From a virus: a stretch of DNA of 64,000 nt. Positions 7,321 through 11,861 of this stretch are shown here, piece by piece. Below the pieces are notes generated by a model. It ran no database searches. It saw only the letters and a list, made by a program, of their open reading frames with translations, and had not been told where the DNA came from. The stretch lies in the IMG/VR virus record IMGVR_UViG_3300045988_102744; one strand, 5' to 3'. The translations under genes and the position numbers were made by a program. Every line of letters starts with the position of its first letter. The stretch's first letter is position 1.

Positions 7321-7698
7321 ATGATAGTATATGATTTAAATTCAGGACACAGAGAATATCCTGGATATGACGAGATAGAAGACAGACGAGGTGGAGGCAG
7401 AGGCAGAAGCCGGCGTTCTGATGGGACGTACATGGAGTACGGACATGGGTTCCTTCCTCCTTACGATCATTATGGTATGCATGAGAAGATGAAGGAAATG
7501 GAAGAACGCGAAAACGAGCTGGAAGAAAGGGAAAGAAGGCTCGAAGAGCGCGAACGTCGTCATGAAATGGAGGACCGGGAATACCGGAGGATGGGTTACG
7601 AATCCTACCCGACCGATTACTATGGAGACGACAGATACTACGGTGACGGACCTCAGATGCGTAGAGGTCGCGGACGTGGCAGAGGTCGTTCTTATTGA
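7321..7698 (+). CDS. Arg/Gly-rich (RGG/RGRGRGRGR) and ERERRLEERERR-repeat basic protein, candidate nucleic-acid-binding internal protein
   Basis: ORF track; RG repeats at both ends and charged ER heptads in the middle; ends at TGA that is followed in-frame by 31 open codons. Confidence 0.55.
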   Translation: MIVYDLNSGHREYPGYDEIEDRRGGGRGRSRRSDGTYMEYGHGFLPPYDHYGMHEKMKEMEERENELEERERRLEERERRHEMEDREYRRMGYESYPTDYYGDDRYYGDGPQMRRGRGRGRGRSY

Positions 7699-7791: not shown

Positions 7792-8085
7792 ATGGTCAAC
7801 GTCGATGGATCCAAGAGGATCTGGAAGCAGCCGGAAATAAAAGATATTTTTGAAAAGTGCGGAGCGAAGAAGCCGGATAAAGCGACATGGGGCGATGTCC
7901 AATATGTCTTTGCAATGTACTATTCGGATGGTTTTCCGAAGGTCTTCAAATGTGAGAACGAGTTGGTGAAAGCTACGTTAATGTATTTGGATGATCCGGA
8001 TGCTCCCGAAGGAGTAGCCTTTATAAGATGGCTTGCCGTGCAAGATTACCTCGGCGAAAAAATAAACTGGAAGGATCTGACCTGA
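7792..8085 (+). CDS. hypothetical 97-aa protein (same frame as 7321..7698; possible N-terminal extension to 7699)
   Basis: ORF track; same reading frame as upstream gene, separated by a single TGA. Confidence 0.45.
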   Translation: MVNVDGSKRIWKQPEIKDIFEKCGAKKPDKATWGDVQYVFAMYYSDGFPKVFKCENELVKATLMYLDDPDAPEGVAFIRWLAVQDYLGEKINWKDLT

Positions 8086-8427: not shown

Positions 8428-8449
8428 ACCTATTTTTTTTAATACCAGG

Positions 8450-8484
8450 CCCGATGCGATTTTAACGTATCGGGTTTTTATTTT
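8450..8484 (+). terminator. rho-independent terminator (CCCGAT-loop-ATCGGG then TTTTTATTTT)
   Basis: 6-bp GC-rich perfect stem 8450-8455/8469-8474 followed by T-tract. Confidence 0.5.
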
Positions 8485-8554
8485 AATTCATATTGTTTTA
8501 TTTTAAATCTAATTAATTAATGAATGTCGTACTTTTGTTGAAAAAGTATTTTTT

Positions 8555-8782
8555 ATGGAAAATAAGGAAGATTACGTTGGTTACGAAGATCAAGAACTGT
8601 GTAACCGGTATTACAAAGAGGCCGAAGCCATGAGGCAAAAGCAGGACTGGTCTCGGCTTAGGGCTGTCCCTGCTCCGGCCAAGGGAACGCCATCGCCCGG
8701 CTGGGGTCAGCTTGGACGTGGAAATGATGTCCGTGTTAAGTATGTTAGCATCAATTCAGGATTAGGAGGAGATAGGTTATGA
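8555..8782 (+). CDS. hypothetical 75-aa protein
   Basis: ORF track; ATGA overlap with next gene. Confidence 0.4.
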   Translation: MENKEDYVGYEDQELCNRYYKEAEAMRQKQDWSRLRAVPAPAKGTPSPGWGQLGRGNDVRVKYVSINSGLGGDRL

Positions 8783-8994
8783 CTGTAGAAGAATTGGCTA
8801 ATAAAAGATACGGTGGCGAATTTGTTTTCATGTTTGGTCATCTTGAAGGTAGAACAAGATTCGTTTTTGAATGCTTTGATCCCAGACCTGATCACGAAGG
8901 TAAAAACACTTATATGGTTTCCTATTTTGATAAGGTACTTCGTAGAAGAGATGTGGTAGATGTGCCGTGTTATATGAATATTTTGCCAAAATAA
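8779..8994 (+). CDS. hypothetical 71-aa protein
   Basis: ORF track; TAATG overlap with next gene. Confidence 0.45.
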   Translation: MTVEELANKRYGGEFVFMFGHLEGRTRFVFECFDPRPDHEGKNTYMVSYFDKVLRRRDVVDVPCYMNILPK

Positions 8995-9197
8995 TGGAAA
9001 CATTAATCTTAGATGTACCTGTATTTTCCGGTAAGATTATTTCTCCTATCTGGATTAAAGCCGTAAGAGATTTTCAATCCAAATCGAAGACAGAAAGATA
9101 CTCGTATTGTTTGATTTGTGGATGTACAGGAGGGTGTAACTTGTGCGATGATATAAGTAAATATAGGATTTCAGAACAATTAAAATATTACAAATAA
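8994..9197 (+). CDS. hypothetical 67-aa Cys-rich protein (CLICGCTGGCNLC)
   Basis: track ORF 8967..9197 trimmed to ATG 8994 overlapping upstream stop (TAATG). Confidence 0.35.
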   Translation: METLILDVPVFSGKIISPIWIKAVRDFQSKSKTERYSYCLICGCTGGCNLCDDISKYRISEQLKYYK

Positions 9198-9940
9198 TGG
9201 AATTAAAAGATTCAGTCAGGGTAATGACTAAAGAAGAGTTCGAATCAGCAATCAACGAAGATATTAAATTCGTTGAAGGAATTAAGCATTTTTTTAAACA
9301 TGATGATGCTACGAGGGTAATGGAACACGTAAAGTCCGTGTTAGAGGCATCAGTAGACTACCACTACCCGAATCATCCTGAACCTGAAGCAGAACCTGGA
9401 GACATGGGAGAGGTTTCTGATGGATACCATACTTTCAATGAATTGTATCGGTATCGCATGTTGTATAACGCTGCCTTCTTTAACCTATTAGCCAGAAGCG
9501 GACAGGTTGAAGTTTGCAAATCAAGGAGACACAGCGACGGAGAAAAATGCTTCGGTTCTGATGATTGGTTTATTGTGATGGCGATCCTACCTACCGGTCA
9601 GGTATCTAATCACTATGAAAGCAAATACTGGGATTTGTTTGATGTTCCAGAAAGAGAAACCGCTTTCGAATACGATGGCCATACACCAAATGAAGCTGCC
9701 GACAGACTTGAAAAGTATCTCAAACTGCCTCGTCGTGGCATGACATTCGAACAGGCTTTAGAACAGCTTAAATTAGGTCGTAAGATAAAAAGAATCGATT
9801 GGGGTAAAAAGTATATCTGTATGTTTATTGTAGAATCTGACGTAAATATATTGATGGTAGATACAGGTCAAAAAGTAGCATCAAATTGGAATCCAACCGA
9901 ACATGATATTATGTCTAATGACTGGGAGATTGCGGGATGA
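9197..9940 (+). CDS. two-domain protein: unknown N-terminal domain plus C-terminal DUF2829/Tad2-like domain (W-G-KK-YI ... W-NPT-D-SNDWEI)
   Basis: ORF track; C-terminal ~65 aa (FEQALEQLKLGRKIKRIDWGKKYICMF...SNWNPTEHDIMSNDWEIAG) matches the short DUF2829 signature from memory. Confidence 0.55.
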   Translation: MELKDSVRVMTKEEFESAINEDIKFVEGIKHFFKHDDATRVMEHVKSVLEASVDYHYPNHPEPEAEPGDMGEVSDGYHTFNELYRYRMLYNAAFFNLLARSGQVEVCKSRRHSDGEKCFGSDDWFIVMAILPTGQVSNHYESKYWDLFDVPERETAFEYDGHTPNEAADRLEKYLKLPRRGMTFEQALEQLKLGRKIKRIDWGKKYICMFIVESDVNILMVDTGQKVASNWNPTEHDIMSNDWEIAG

Positions 9941-10212
9941 GTTTGTTTGTTTGTTCAAAGTGTGGCTGTATAGATAATACAGCCACATCATATTACTGGG
10001 CTCTTATAAGACCTTGTAAGAATCGTATTTACGATAAGTCGCTAAAGGGATATGAAGGCAAGCCTCTTTGTTCTGAATGTGCCGCTATTGAATATAGTAA
10101 GGGAGGCGAAGTGGTGGTAGTTCCTGGAACGTGGCACGGTAAGTTCAAGAAAGAATGGCCTACTGAAGAAGAAAAGAAGCATATTGGTAAAAATGGTATT
10201 TTAAATTATTGA
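9937..10212 (+). CDS. hypothetical 91-aa Cys-rich (zinc-ribbon-like) protein
   Basis: ORF track; CSKCGC ... CSEC pairs; ATGA overlap upstream. Confidence 0.5.
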   Translation: MSLFVCSKCGCIDNTATSYYWALIRPCKNRIYDKSLKGYEGKPLCSECAAIEYSKGGEVVVVPGTWHGKFKKEWPTEEEKKHIGKNGILNY

Positions 10213-10215
10213 TTT

Positions 10216-10521
10216 ATGTGTGATAAGGAAATTGTTATATGCGCAGCTATCTGGGTTCAAGATTACAAGAATAAGCCTCACGGTCCAATAAATATACCAT
10301 CCGGAACCGTATTTTGTGGATTGAGACACTGTTCTATAATATCGCAACTTGCTGCATACGGTATAGCTCATAAAAACCGCAGTGTTCAAGGATTTTTGAC
10401 AAGCAAGAACCGGTTTCTGACGAGAGAAGAAGCGTCTGAGCTTGTTAAGAACAATAATCAGGAGATGGTAGTAGATAGGAATGCTATTAGAGAACAATTG
10501 TATTCAGAAGATTTATATTAA
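10216..10521 (+). CDS. hypothetical 101-aa protein
   Basis: ORF track. Confidence 0.5.
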   Translation: MCDKEIVICAAIWVQDYKNKPHGPINIPSGTVFCGLRHCSIISQLAAYGIAHKNRSVQGFLTSKNRFLTREEASELVKNNNQEMVVDRNAIREQLYSEDLY

Positions 10522-10538
10522 CTAAAAAACAAAACAAC

Positions 10539-10895
10539 ATGGGGTTTAAAATCAAAAAGTCAATCATTTATAATATGATGAACGGCAGTCGGGTAGAGTA
10601 CGAATTTGACAATACCAAGGATTTTGATTATATTACATTTAAGGGTGATGGCAAAGAGTCTTTTTCATTTAACGTAATCCTTGTTAAACAATTAATTGCA
10701 ACATTTGAAATCATGTTGCAGGATATATATTCTGATAATTATAAGCTTAAGGTTTATGCTGGTAATTGCATAGTTCAATTGAACGCAAATCCAAAGGACT
10801 CAAGTGAATCCTTTTTTGACGTATATGATAAAGATGAAACGAAACTGATATATGGAATAGAGATCGGTATTCTGAAAGGAATGTTTGGCATATGA
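10539..10895 (+). CDS. hypothetical 118-aa protein
   Basis: ORF track. Confidence 0.5.
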   Translation: MGFKIKKSIIYNMMNGSRVEYEFDNTKDFDYITFKGDGKESFSFNVILVKQLIATFEIMLQDIYSDNYKLKVYAGNCIVQLNANPKDSSESFFDVYDKDETKLIYGIEIGILKGMFGI

Positions 10896-11209
10896 TTACT
10901 AAACAAGATATACAAGCAGCAGCATCGTATATTTTCCGAAGCAGTTTTGTCTCAGAAGACCAGGCAAGGAAAGTAACGATAAGAGCCGGTAATAACGCTA
11001 CCAAGAACCTTGTCAAGACCTTCAGAGGAAAGTTGTTCAAGAAGGCTTTTGGAAGAGCTCGTAGAGGAAAGGATATCAGTTCTTTTGAAAGACAAGAAAA
11101 AGAAAGTGGTTTTAATTTTCTTTATAATCCTAATAATGGTCGTATGCGAAGCGGTCATATTATAATAGATGGAATTGGTCTGTTTAAACAAATAATTCAT
11201 GAAAGGTAA
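10892..11209 (+). CDS. hypothetical 105-aa basic protein
   Basis: ORF track; ATGA overlap upstream. Confidence 0.5.
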   Translation: MITKQDIQAAASYIFRSSFVSEDQARKVTIRAGNNATKNLVKTFRGKLFKKAFGRARRGKDISSFERQEKESGFNFLYNPNNGRMRSGHIIIDGIGLFKQIIHER

Positions 11210-11369
11210 AAAAGTTGATATTCGTTTAGGCAGAGGTCTGGCGAATCAGATTAAGATAAACAAAACCATCCCAGTGTCTCATAAACCAAAAGAAGAACGT
11301 CGAATGATGTTTATTTGTGGTGATGATATTGCTTCTCTTATAAAGCGGTTTGAAAACGAATCAAAGTAA
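11199..11369 (+). CDS. small hypothetical protein (56 aa, MKGKKVDIRLGRGLANQ...)
   Basis: ATG 11199 overlapping stop of upstream gene, TAA 11367-11369; fills an otherwise unexplained 170-nt gap. Confidence 0.3.
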   Translation: MKGKKVDIRLGRGLANQIKINKTIPVSHKPKEERRMMFICGDDIASLIKRFENESK

Positions 11370-11382
11370 TATAAAGTAGGAC

Positions 11383-11742
11383 ATGTATCTTGTCCGATTT
11401 TTTTTATATATTTGTGGCATGGCAAGAGGTTATTATTGGATACCACAAACAGATGAAACGTTAAATGGCAGAAGCTATTACGTGGCTAAGATAGTAGGAG
11501 ATATCACGTTTGATACTAAACGAAAAAGAATCGTATTTCAAGCTGATAGGTATTTCCCTGTAGGATCTGTTTTCCATTTTACGCACAATTGCTTCAACTA
11601 TATCATAACTTGCCGACTTCGTAAGCCGGGGCTTTGGTTTGAAGCCAGGAGAGAAGATTCAGGCTCTATTTGCCCTGAAGATATTGAGCGCTTTGAATCG
11701 GGAAGGTTTATACACCGAGATGGGTACATGCATTACATATAA
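11383..11742 (+). CDS. hypothetical 119-aa protein
   Basis: ORF track; followed by small hairpins and T-runs. Confidence 0.5.
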   Translation: MYLVRFFLYICGMARGYYWIPQTDETLNGRSYYVAKIVGDITFDTKRKRIVFQADRYFPVGSVFHFTHNCFNYIITCRLRKPGLWFEARREDSGSICPEDIERFESGRFIHRDGYMHYI

Positions 11743-11853
11743 GCTGAACTTGACGATTTTTCGTCAGATTATAATTTTTTTTCATATTATTTTTAAGCCA
11801 TCAGACTGAGAAGTTAGGTGGCTTTATTTTTTATGATATGCTTGATTTTTAAC

Positions 11854-11861
11854 TACCTTTG
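11854..11861 (+). promoter_or_regulatory. Bacteroidota-type -7 promoter element TAccTTTG 24 nt upstream of the giant gene
   Basis: matches TAnnTTTG consensus; -33 TTTG partner not convincing. Confidence 0.3.

Follow-up and report, generated by a model that had tools for sequence, protein, structure and literature searches.

The window, a 64,000-nucleotide stretch of DNA from a crAss-like gut phage whose host is a probable member of the Bacteroidota, carries a gene for a 247-aa protein that runs from a helical hairpin through a WDGH domain to a Tad2-like domain of minimal form, and we give about an even chance to the reading that this is a modular counter-defence protein built from three autonomous beads. 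Tad2 sponges and fused sponges are already known, while the minimal Tad2 form and WDGH, which has a name in Pfam, are uncharacterised. The relevant features and their coordinates are collected in Table 1.

Table 1. Features of the gene, its product, and the surrounding cassette (positions in the window)
Feature	Position	Strand	Remark
Terminator-like hairpin	8447..8477	+	stem of 12 bp, then a run of T; directly 5' of the cassette
TACTTTTG motif, Bacteroidota -7 type	8530-8537	+	18 nt upstream of the first ATG
Cassette: ten small ORFs that overlap or abut	8555..11742	+	includes the gene
Translational coupling to both neighbours	9195-9199; 9937-9940	+	TAATG overlap; ATGA overlap
Whole gene, 247-aa three-module protein	9197..9940	+	ATG start; stop codon 9938-9940
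N-terminal helical hairpin, aa 12-56	9230..9364	+	AF2 model
Acidic linker of ~17 aa, aa 57-73	3' of hairpin	+	predicted disordered
WDGH domain (PF25311), aa 71-176	9407..9724	+	alpha+beta fold
Minimal Tad2-like domain (PF11195), aa 182-247	9740..9937	+	profile and predicted structure
beta1-beta2 loop W202-G203-K204	9800..9808	+	replaces canonical W-N-G
Motif W231-N-P-T234-E-H236-D237	9887..9907	+	corresponds to SPO1 Tad2 W73-V-P-S76-Q-T78-D79
Weaker terminator-like hairpin	11750..11767	+	cassette end
TACCTTTG	11854-11861	+	precedes the 2140-aa structural gene

An earlier note on this DNA had described the protein as a Tad2-like C-terminus fused to a single N-terminal domain of about 180 aa of unknown function. 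Both peptides that it quoted were found in the translation of the ORF, and the fusion stands, while the N-terminal part resolved into the hairpin (aa 12-56) and WDGH. In a Pfam scan of the protein, the hairpin had no match and neither a Sequestin nor an Acb4 domain was detected; PADLOC and NCBIfam returned zero defence or family matches. The idea that the hairpin is a cryptic Sequestin (PF21825) was rejected, as the hairpin alignment, compared with Sequestin segments by hhalign, scored a probability of 0.3%. Compared with the ortholog in the csAssE-Sib phage, which is the only ortholog at the DNA level, dN/dS is 0.157 for the whole gene and 0.05 over WDGH; the Tad2 segment has zero synonymous and three non-synonymous differences and gives no usable ratio. 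All modules are acidic, with a pI of about 5, and net charge is therefore uninformative as an indicator of a sponge.

The three beads recombine freely in close relatives. Of the 120 best homologs, 98 have both WDGH and the Tad2-like module. Three different Tad2 versions are joined to WDGH in relatives, and some relatives combine it with the proven sponge Sequestin plus Tad2, as in the WDGH-Sequestin-Tad2 fusions P0110, P0115, and P0117. Tad2 versions joined to a near-identical WDGH have only 28-42% identity to the version in the window, which suggests that the two were paired anew, or kept together, on repeated occasions. At the locus, the Tad2-like bead stays constant and the hairpin varies: relatives swap it, lengthen it by 44 aa, or substitute Bro-N or other sequences for it. 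The Tad2-like module was also found alone (66 aa in L016; as a stand-alone ORF in P0269 and P0271, with a range of 62-66 aa), with other upstream partners (L014 and L017), and split from WDGH in L015. Because close relatives carry the module in these different ways, the modules are autonomous. The split in L015 results from a 1-nt deletion (window position 9688) with an ATGA restart; it is not an ancestral gene boundary, and we rejected L015 as a clean two-gene ancestor.

The Tad2-like nature of the C-terminus, as proposed in the earlier note, was borne out. Residues 182-245 match PF11195 (formerly DUF2829) with an E-value of 8.5e-13; the score is 49.1 bits, where the gathering score is 25, and the alignment spans positions 1-72 of the 73 in the profile. 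The isolated 68-aa segment matches SPO1 Tad2 (8sme) with an E-value of 1.2e-6 and ModTad2 and HgmTad2/AcrIIA7 with E-values of about 1e-4; judged by these comparisons, the match to the Tad2 family is far beyond chance. In the AF2 model, helix alpha1 of the module leads into an antiparallel sheet of five strands that is followed by a short C-terminal helix, and this arrangement is the Tad2 core fold. The kinship claimed with Tad2 thus extends to a significant profile match and a compatible core fold and stops at the nucleotide pocket, which is not intact. The second motif of the DUF2829 signature that had been read in the sequence is literally present (W231-N-P-T-E-H-D-I-M-S-N-D-W-E-I), whereas the first, W-x-G-K, is not, and W202-G-K-K stands in its place.

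Two types of changes affect the pocket. First, residues that contact the ligand are replaced. All four solved Tad2 proteins have W-N-G-K in the beta1-beta2 loop; the window protein retains the Trp and has Gly for the Asn that contacts phosphate. In the second motif, the W, P, and D of SPO1 Tad2 are kept, S is replaced by T, and T by H, so that His236 occupies the adenine-contacting Thr position (SPO1 T78 and HgmTad2 T92), at which the collected modules have S, H, E, A, N, or G. N26 of SPO1 Tad2 and N22 of HgmTad2 contact the diphosphate, T78 of SPO1 Tad2 contacts adenine, and HgmTad2 W21A/N22A loses gcADPR binding (10.1101/2023.05.01.538930, 10.1101/2023.11.15.567273). SPO1 Tad2 contacts gcADPR directly through seven residues, of which the window module keeps four (W25, W73, D79, and T65) and has a conservative replacement at a fifth (I63 to V). 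Second, the beta2-beta3 insertion is absent, with only four residues (E-S-D-V) connecting the two strands, and the spacing from Trp to Trp is 29 residues compared with 48 in SPO1 Tad2 and 66 in HgmTad2. In SPO1 Tad2, this insertion includes helix alpha2, which builds a V-shaped dimer; the Tad2 homotetramer consists of such alpha2/beta2 dimers interlocked along alpha1, with the pockets between protomers. In HgmTad2 and SptTad2, 35-41 residues inserted between beta2 and beta5 form the pocket for cGG/cGAMP.

Because the alpha2 segment is absent, the V-dimer interface would be at least reduced and the tetramer that forms the pockets may not form. Li et al. predicted only about 1% of short Tad2 proteins to be non-functional for gcADPR binding, and the window module may belong to this class. 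The proposal that the protein sequesters gcADPR, cGAMP, or cGG is consequently doubtful: with the Asn and the beta2-beta3 insertion missing, binding of these ligands is not to be assumed. A sponge role for the module is plausible, but given that it has neither the Asn nor the Thr nor the insertion, its ligand would probably be neither canonical 3'cADPR bound in the canonical manner nor a cyclic dinucleotide.

The replaced Asn and Thr and the missing alpha2 insertion also agree with a different reading, which we consider rather unlikely, namely, that the Tad2-like module has lost ligand binding and acts solely in oligomerisation, as a scaffold, or in protein binding, on behalf of WDGH or of any other partner upstream, with WDGH as the active part. 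In line with this reading, no other part of the protein comes close to WDGH in conservation, and the residue pair after the conserved Trp varies freely in minimal versions (GK, KN, ND, KD, and GG), whereas W-N-G is fixed in the four solved sponges. Among the 206 modules collected, every W-N-G module is of the long form, and the window module falls in the short class without N-G. On the other hand, the pocket residues W202, W231, P233, and D237, which are found family-wide, are still invariant; in all WDGH-fused versions, W202, W231 (at least 90%), P233, D237, D242, and W243 are conserved. Moreover, the persistence of ORFs that encode the module without a partner is unexpected for a pure scaffold, and WDGH does without a Tad2-like module in hundreds of phages. 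The first reports on DUF2829 proteins of human-gut metagenomes described them as inhibiting type II-A Cas9, and we regard an AcrIIA7-like anti-CRISPR function for the window protein as very improbable.

Residues 71-173 match PF25311 with an E-value of 2e-36 and 124.7 bits against a gathering score of 27, and the eponymous W-D-G-H reads Y-D-G-H in the window protein. Seventeen residues are invariant among nine distant phages (S74, D75, H78, T79, L83, Y84, R87, S109, H112, D114, G134, H139, E152, D160, G161, R170, and L171), and all 17 are present in the window protein. These residues are mostly polar and are kept in phages of Firmicutes, Actinobacteria, and Proteobacteria; the cluster of invariant His, Asp, Ser, Glu, and Arg residues fits a nucleotide-binding or hydrolytic site. 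Two conserved Cys residues, C107 and C118, are specific to the gut-phage branch of WDGH. The domain is widespread, with more than 3,700 protein clusters (50% identity) and 197 cultured-phage records, and it occurs in well-studied P22-like, A511/P100, Bacillus, pneumococcal, and lactococcal phages; among the 50%-identity cluster representatives listed, WDGH is 60-80% identical. Many unrelated phages, among them A511, Deep Blue, Qui, phiAsp2, and phiARI0468-4, have it as a stand-alone protein of 107-131 aa. Searches against BFVD matched only other WDGH or uncharacterised phage proteins, and the best match of the WDGH profile among PDB sequences had an E-value of 0.85. WDGH showed no structural similarity to a solved protein, solved sponges included, and we rejected the possibility that WDGH is a known fold. 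A literature search for WDGH, PF25311, or csAssE returned nothing relevant.

Fusion partners were surveyed in 148 sequences (147 cluster representatives and the window protein) using Pfam and PHROG scans. Nearly all flanks were unannotated, and we discarded domain partners as a clue to WDGH function. Only 4 of the 148 combine WDGH with a Tad2-like module, and the other partners were sporadic (GNAT, sigma-70 region 4, Myb, YccV, toxin, or pyrophosphohydrolase) or unannotated repeat modules. Because WDGH is promiscuous in its partners, the case from guilt by fusion is weakened; joined here to a Tad2-like module, widespread, and highly conserved, WDGH is a good candidate for a new counter-defence module.

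The genomic neighbourhood favours the counter-defence reading of the whole protein. The earlier note had placed the gene in a run of small genes among structural genes, and this description holds: the ten ORFs of the cassette are tightly packed on the plus strand, and in the csAssE-Sib phage, which is 95% identical, annotated structural genes flank the locus on both sides. In the window, the cassette is followed downstream by a 2140-aa ORF with a match to PHROG 37651 ('virion structural protein'; E-value of 2e-74). The cassette is hypervariable and bracketed by terminator-like hairpins, and its order is the same in csAssE-Sib and metagenomic relatives. TAnnTTTG motifs are not enriched across the window (61 found versus 71 expected), and for this reason the promoter assignments in Table 1 are suggestive only. 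A sigma-70 promoter scan was dropped as not meaningful for a probable Bacteroidota host.

WDGH genes lie within morphogenesis operons in four unrelated phage groups, this window included: between coat and gp4 in P22-like phages, between portal and a MuF-like gene in pneumococcal phage phiARI0468-4, and between adaptor and tail in phiAsp2. This placement would suit a virion-associated cargo or assembly accessory protein, while Bro-N in some relatives, sigma-70 region 4, Myb, and YccV in rare ones, and the match of the C-terminus to PHROG 643 (E-value of 3e-6), which is labelled 'transcriptional regulator', would suit a Bro-like DNA-binding regulator; we judge it improbable that the protein is either of these rather than an antagonist of immune signals. 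The PHROG 643 label covers the DUF2829 fold, which is represented by solved sponge structures and is not known to bind DNA. A511, Deep Blue, Qui, and LASTA carry the gene among small accessory genes and not among structural ones. Also, WDGH is about 40% identical with invariant polar residues despite unrelated capsid and tail proteins, which argues for a target that is universal and against a structural partner peculiar to each phage.

If the protein is a modular counter-defence protein, the Tad2-like bead would oligomerise via helix alpha1, and a TIR-derived signalling nucleotide of the ADP-ribose type would be held between protomers by W202, W231, T234, and D237 and in this way withheld from the host effector. 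WDGH would have its own, independent target, a second small molecule or host factor that is conserved universally, and a single polypeptide could blunt more than one immune pathway, as has been found experimentally for Acb4-Tad2 fusions. A more far-reaching and less probable version, which we put forward tentatively, is that WDGH is a new widespread counter-defence family that neutralises a nucleotide-type signal, either as a sponge or, given the invariant His/Asp/Ser/Glu cluster, as a small hydrolase, and that the Asn-less Tad2 bead represents a new specificity class for an orphan TIR product such as N7-cADPR. In crAss-like gut phages, the gene would then encode an antagonist of signalling immunity with two warheads. 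We know of no sponge for N7-cADPR.

Research on phage proteins that sequester the nucleotides of immune signalling or destroy them is moving fast, and the discovery rule that has lately been most productive there leads, when applied here, to WDGH. Should WDGH prove to be a counter-defence module, a function would be assigned at once to many "hypothetical" genes of model phages. The minimal Tad2 form bears on how little of the Tad2 fold a pocket requires and on whether the ligands of the family go beyond 3'cADPR, His-ADPR, and cyclic dinucleotides. Should both ideas fail, the gene still offers a clear example of how modules are rapidly shuffled at an accessory locus in an abundant phage lineage of the human gut.

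Among known systems, the C-terminal module is closest to the phage-encoded and very small Tad2 sponges SPO1 Tad2/Gp34.65 (8sme), ModTad2 (9eib), and HgmTad2/AcrIIA7 (8kbi), with which it shares PF11195, the core fold, the Trp of the beta1-beta2 loop, the W-x-P-[ST]-x-x-D motif, and the terminal DW. It differs from them in its length (66 aa versus 89-104 aa), in lacking the alpha2 dimer helix and the cyclic-dinucleotide pocket, in having W-G-K instead of W-N-G and His instead of the adenine-contacting Thr, and in its location at the C-terminus of a multi-domain protein rather than as a free-standing sponge. Tad2 is often joined to other sponges, i.e., Acb4 and Sequestin (PF21825), an Acb4-Tad2 fusion stops both Thoeris and CBASS, and Sequestin was found through its fusion to Tad2 (10.1101/2025.07.12.664507). 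As in Acb4-Tad2 of Pasteurella phage Pm86, Sequestin-Tad2, and Sequestin-Acb4, small autonomous phage domains are combined here in one polypeptide, and the second domain also exists as a stand-alone small phage protein; unlike in those fusions, this partner is uncharacterised and does not figure in that work (10.1101/2025.07.12.664507). The WDGH part resembles Orf-186 of Salmonella phage ST64T/L, gp6 of epsilon34, A511 gp21/P100 gp128 of Listeria phages, and gp185 of Arthrobacter phage Qui (33-51% identity, with the 17 invariant residues all present), which are products of small accessory or moron-type genes annotated as hypothetical; unlike the window protein, they have no Tad2-like domain, and they have W-D-G-H where the window protein has Y-D-G-H together with C107 and C118. 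Finally, Iyer, Burroughs, Aravind, and co-workers reportedly described in 2017 polyvalent proteins of phages and conjugative elements, beads-on-a-string proteins whose linker-strung modules are reshuffled among relatives and presumably serve conflicts between genomes. With its three beads, the window protein is short by comparison, and the wider set of WDGH proteins strings modules in the same manner with recurring 'WLEKQGEQKP' linkers.

The gene at 9197-9940 encodes a protein whose translation contains exactly the peptides quoted in the earlier note. The stop codon of the preceding ORF shares bases with its start codon (TAATG), as its own stop codon does with the start of the following ORF (ATGA); therefore, the gene is part of a series of ten small plus-strand ORFs coupled in translation (the cassette). 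An AlphaFold2 model (51 homologs as input; mean pLDDT 80.9) shows three modules, two of which have Pfam matches. Domain databases thus already reveal this two-domain architecture; the N-terminal part, previously described as an unknown domain, contains WDGH, which databases list as a domain of unknown function.

Features of the protein, the window and related loci (L, DNA loci of relatives or WDGH-carrying phages)
Feature	Position	Remarks
Gene	9197-9940 (+)	ATG start; 247 aa
Helical hairpin	aa 12-56	AlphaFold2
Acidic linker, disordered	aa 57-73	AlphaFold2; low confidence to about aa 78
WDGH, Pfam	aa 71-173	PF25311, E 2e-36, 124.7 bits, cut-off 27
WDGH, fold model	aa 78-176	AlphaFold2; alpha+beta; short linker after
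Tad2-like	aa 182-245	PF11195 (former DUF2829), E 8.5e-13, 49.1 bits, cut-off 25; same span in AlphaFold2
Cassette	8555-11742 (+)	
Strong terminator-like hairpin	8447-8477	precedes cassette
TACTTTTG motif	18 nt before first cassette ATG	candidate promoter motif, not enriched in window
Weaker hairpin	11750-11767	after cassette
125-aa ORF	7321-7698 (+)	'ERENELEERERRLEERERRHEMEDRE...', 'RRGRGRGRGRSY'
97-aa ORF	7792-8085 (+)	Pfam DUF7841, E 3.8e-9
Upstream neighbor	8967-9197 (+)	
Downstream neighbor	9937-10212 (+)	PHROG 11861, function not known
101-aa ORF, two genes downstream	10216-10521 (+)	PHROG 839, E 6e-17
1-nt deletion	9688	vs L015:2449/2450
TnpB insertion	L014:3394-4533	downstream of Tad2 gene; OrfB_IS605 + Cas12f1-like TNB
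~212-aa ORF	L014:1866-2504; L017:1758-2399	'VVRIAYFGTDGCPGH...'
WDGH gene, ST64T	L002:3821-4381	morphogenesis operon
WDGH gene, epsilon34	L012:2321-2881	morphogenesis operon
WDGH gene, pneumococcal phage phiARI0468-4	L011:2899-3294	between portal and MuF-like minor capsid gene
WDGH gene, phiAsp2	L007:2432-2821	between head-tail adaptor and major tail
Locus of WDGH gene gp134, Bacillus phage Nate	L004:2848-4048	gp134 overlaps start of NADAR-family gene gp135

The C-terminal DUF2829/Tad2 assignment is correct far beyond chance, based on the Pfam match and on a search of the PDB sequence set with the C-terminal 68 aa alone, which matched SPO1 Tad2 (E 1.2e-6), ModTad2, and two AcrIIA7 entries, one of them HgmTad2/AcrIIA7. 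An anti-CRISPR role of the AcrIIA7 type is very improbable, the underlying annotation being disputed. In SPO1 Tad2, W25, N26, I63, T65, W73, T78, and D79 contact the ligand directly, with water-mediated contributions from D67, H71, and S76 (10.1101/2023.05.01.538930). HgmTad2 uses W21, N22, G23, W87, S90, T92, and D93, and neither its W21A/N22A nor its S90A/T92A/D93A mutant still binds (10.1101/2023.11.15.567273). When SPO1 Tad2 was mapped onto the window protein via HMMER alignments, W25, T65, W73, and D79 were kept (W202, T223, W231, and D237), I63 and S76 were conservatively replaced (V221 and T234), T78 was changed (H236), and N26 was lost (G203); the last two substitutions, together with the shortened beta2-beta3 segment described below, make canonical binding of gcADPR, a ligand suggested earlier, doubtful.

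All four solved Tad2 proteins have G-W-N-G-K, whereas the window protein has D-W-G-K-K. Its beta2-beta3 segment comprises four residues (E-S-D-V), whereas in SPO1 Tad2 this segment bears the helix (alpha2) that builds the V-shaped dimer, and in HgmTad2 and SptTad2 a 35-41-residue insertion there constitutes the whole cyclic-dinucleotide pocket. HgmTad2-type binding of cGAMP or cGG, also entertained in the earlier note, is thereby excluded. The Trp-to-Trp spacing is 29 residues, compared with 48 in SPO1 Tad2 and 66 in HgmTad2. Among 206 collected Tad2-like modules, a sample biased toward the relatives considered here, all 112 W-N-G modules are of the long form and 91 of 94 non-NG modules are short. 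Based on its W-G-K loop and short form, the window module therefore falls into a minimal, Asn-less class, for which ligand binding is putative. The elements lining the gcADPR pocket are all present (beta1-beta2 loop, beta3-beta4, W-x-P-S loop, and last helix), and a pocket between alpha1-interlocked protomers is conceivable. ModTad2 binds His-ADPR, and thus the family has shifted ligand at least once; at least one TIR signal, N7-cADPR, lacks a known sponge. The main rival explanation, that the minimal module has lost its pocket and only scaffolds its partner, is somewhat unlikely; against it speaks that the module persists as a free 62-66-aa ORF.

Among the 120 top-ranking homologs of the full-length protein, 98 have both a WDGH and a Tad2-like domain. 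Across fusions, the WDGH part is nearly constant, and the Tad2 part has at least three versions, 28-42% identical to that of the window; WDGH is fused to minimal W-G-K-K (window type), minimal W-K-N-E and W-N-D-K, and canonical long W-N-G-K-G modules. In three homologs (P0110, P0115, and P0117), Sequestin (PF21825) lies between WDGH and canonical Tad2. The Tad2 module stands alone in the L016 cassette (66 aa), is separated from WDGH by the deletion in L015 (ATGA restart), directly follows the hairpin in P0270, and is joined to 25-30 aa from the beginning of the upstream ORF in P0268 and P0273. What stays constant at the locus is the Tad2-like module; its partners are interchangeable.

In some metagenomic relatives, the deletion polymorphism, located immediately downstream of the D-G-H-T-P codons, breaks the gene in two, with loss of the final WDGH helix; it may be genuine or stem from an assembly error. 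Mobile elements invade the cassette in relatives, as in L014, and the homologs P0108 and P0069 are chimeras of truncated WDGH with a TnpB TNB or an RRXRR domain. The unrelated ~212-aa ORF upstream of the Tad2 module, for which there was no Pfam match, directly replaces hairpin and WDGH in L014, precedes the hairpin-Tad2 remnant (P0270) in L017, and is fused in frame with the C-terminal half of WDGH plus Tad2 in P0094 and P0107.

Using WDGH alone as query against 1.84 billion cluster representatives, we found 3,745 proteins with an E of at most 1e-3, of which 441 also pass a threshold of 1e-30; among the matches listed, the proteins span 140-638 aa and the domain itself is 60-80% identical. WDGH proteins without a fusion partner have 107-131 aa. 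The 197 cultured-phage records containing WDGH, all annotated as hypothetical, include Listeria phages A511 (gp21) and P100 (gp128), many Bacillus phages, P22-like Salmonella phages (ST64T and L, Orf-186; epsilon34, gp6), and pneumococcal, lactococcal, Klebsiella, Arthrobacter, and Actinoplanes phages. In nine distant members, 17 mostly polar residues do not vary (S74, D75, H78, T79, L83, Y84, R87, S109, H112, D114, G134, H139, E152, D160, G161, R170, and L171), a pattern suggestive of ligand binding or catalysis more than of scaffolding. WDGH/PF25311 is not mentioned in the literature searched, including a 2025 Tad2-fusion mining study (10.1101/2025.07.12.664507). The guilt-by-fusion case for WDGH is real but tempered: only 4 of 148 scanned sequences carry Tad2-like, and in the wider family 'WLEKQGEQKP' linkers string WDGH together with many unannotated beads. 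Many gut-metagenome members among the family representatives P0124-P0234 are beads-on-a-string proteins with recurring '...W[IL]xWLEKQGEQKP' linkers on both sides of WDGH and flanking units (repeated helical 'SEEDEKILN...WLKSLK', 'PKFKVGDW', and 'ATKEQRDxLFxKMKEAGYEWD'); every recurring unit lacks a Pfam model.

In P22-like phages, a lone WDGH gene is inserted between coat and gp4. Because WDGH is a repeated single insertion in head/tail operons of unrelated phages, its products are possibly expressed late or packaged. A structural or regulatory role, for which gene position and rare DNA-binding partners speak, is quite improbable and poorly fits the conservation of WDGH across phages with unrelated virions. 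NADAR, an ADP-ribose-related neighbor, was seen next to WDGH in one phage lineage only.

The gene region is 94.9% identical to that of the phage csAssE-Sib (OR575929, human gut, 151 kb), whose ortholog is annotated 'DUF2829' only. Relative to this phage, dN/dS is 0.157 for the whole gene and 0.05 for WDGH, with too few differences in the Tad2 segment to judge. The proposed small-gene cluster between structural genes is borne out: upstream, the csAssE-Sib record has genes for a muzzle protein, for a tail lysozyme, and for several giant structural proteins, a crAss-like layout, and just downstream of the cassette in the window a 2140-aa ORF matches PHROG 37651 'virion structural protein' (E 2e-74). 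Because hairpins bracket the cassette and the candidate motif precedes its first ATG, it fits a self-contained, moron-like unit. Both immediate neighbors of the gene encode small proteins rich in Cys, whose CxxC pairs resemble those of zinc ribbons ('CSKCGC...CSEC' and 'CLICGCTGGCNLC'). Our Pfam search gave no match for the 101-aa ORF; its close relatives have a precomputed match to PF26092 'T4_Y16D', whose name derives from a functionally uncharacterized T4 ORF, and the similarly named T4 ORF Y16O was recently shown to be the Sequestin sponge. Just upstream of the cassette, the DUF7841 ORF holds a position conserved in relatives, and the 125-aa ORF is of very low complexity, Arg/Glu-rich with RG repeats, an unusual composition for a phage protein.

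The earlier observation thus stands, and its interpretation is supported only in part. The best-supported reading, with about an even chance of being right, is a modular counter-defense protein. The analysis demonstrates which domains the protein contains, how they fold, how its residues map onto those of known Tad2 proteins, and that its modules behave as exchangeable units. We infer that its Tad2-like bead would probably still capture an ADP-ribose-type signal between protomers of an oligomer, with likely non-canonical specificity and no cyclic-dinucleotide site; WDGH would add an independent second activity against a universally conserved target, and the hairpin may aid oligomerization. The minimal Tad2 class and WDGH are both unstudied groups, and it is moderately likely that a new family will emerge from this protein. 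Sequestin, an experimentally proven 3'cADPR sponge, owes its discovery to its fusions with Tad2 and Acb4, and Acb4 joined to Tad2 blocks Thoeris as well as CBASS (10.1101/2025.07.12.664507). Judged by its domain architecture, the window protein would belong, as a variant, with these Tad2-containing multi-module anti-defense proteins.
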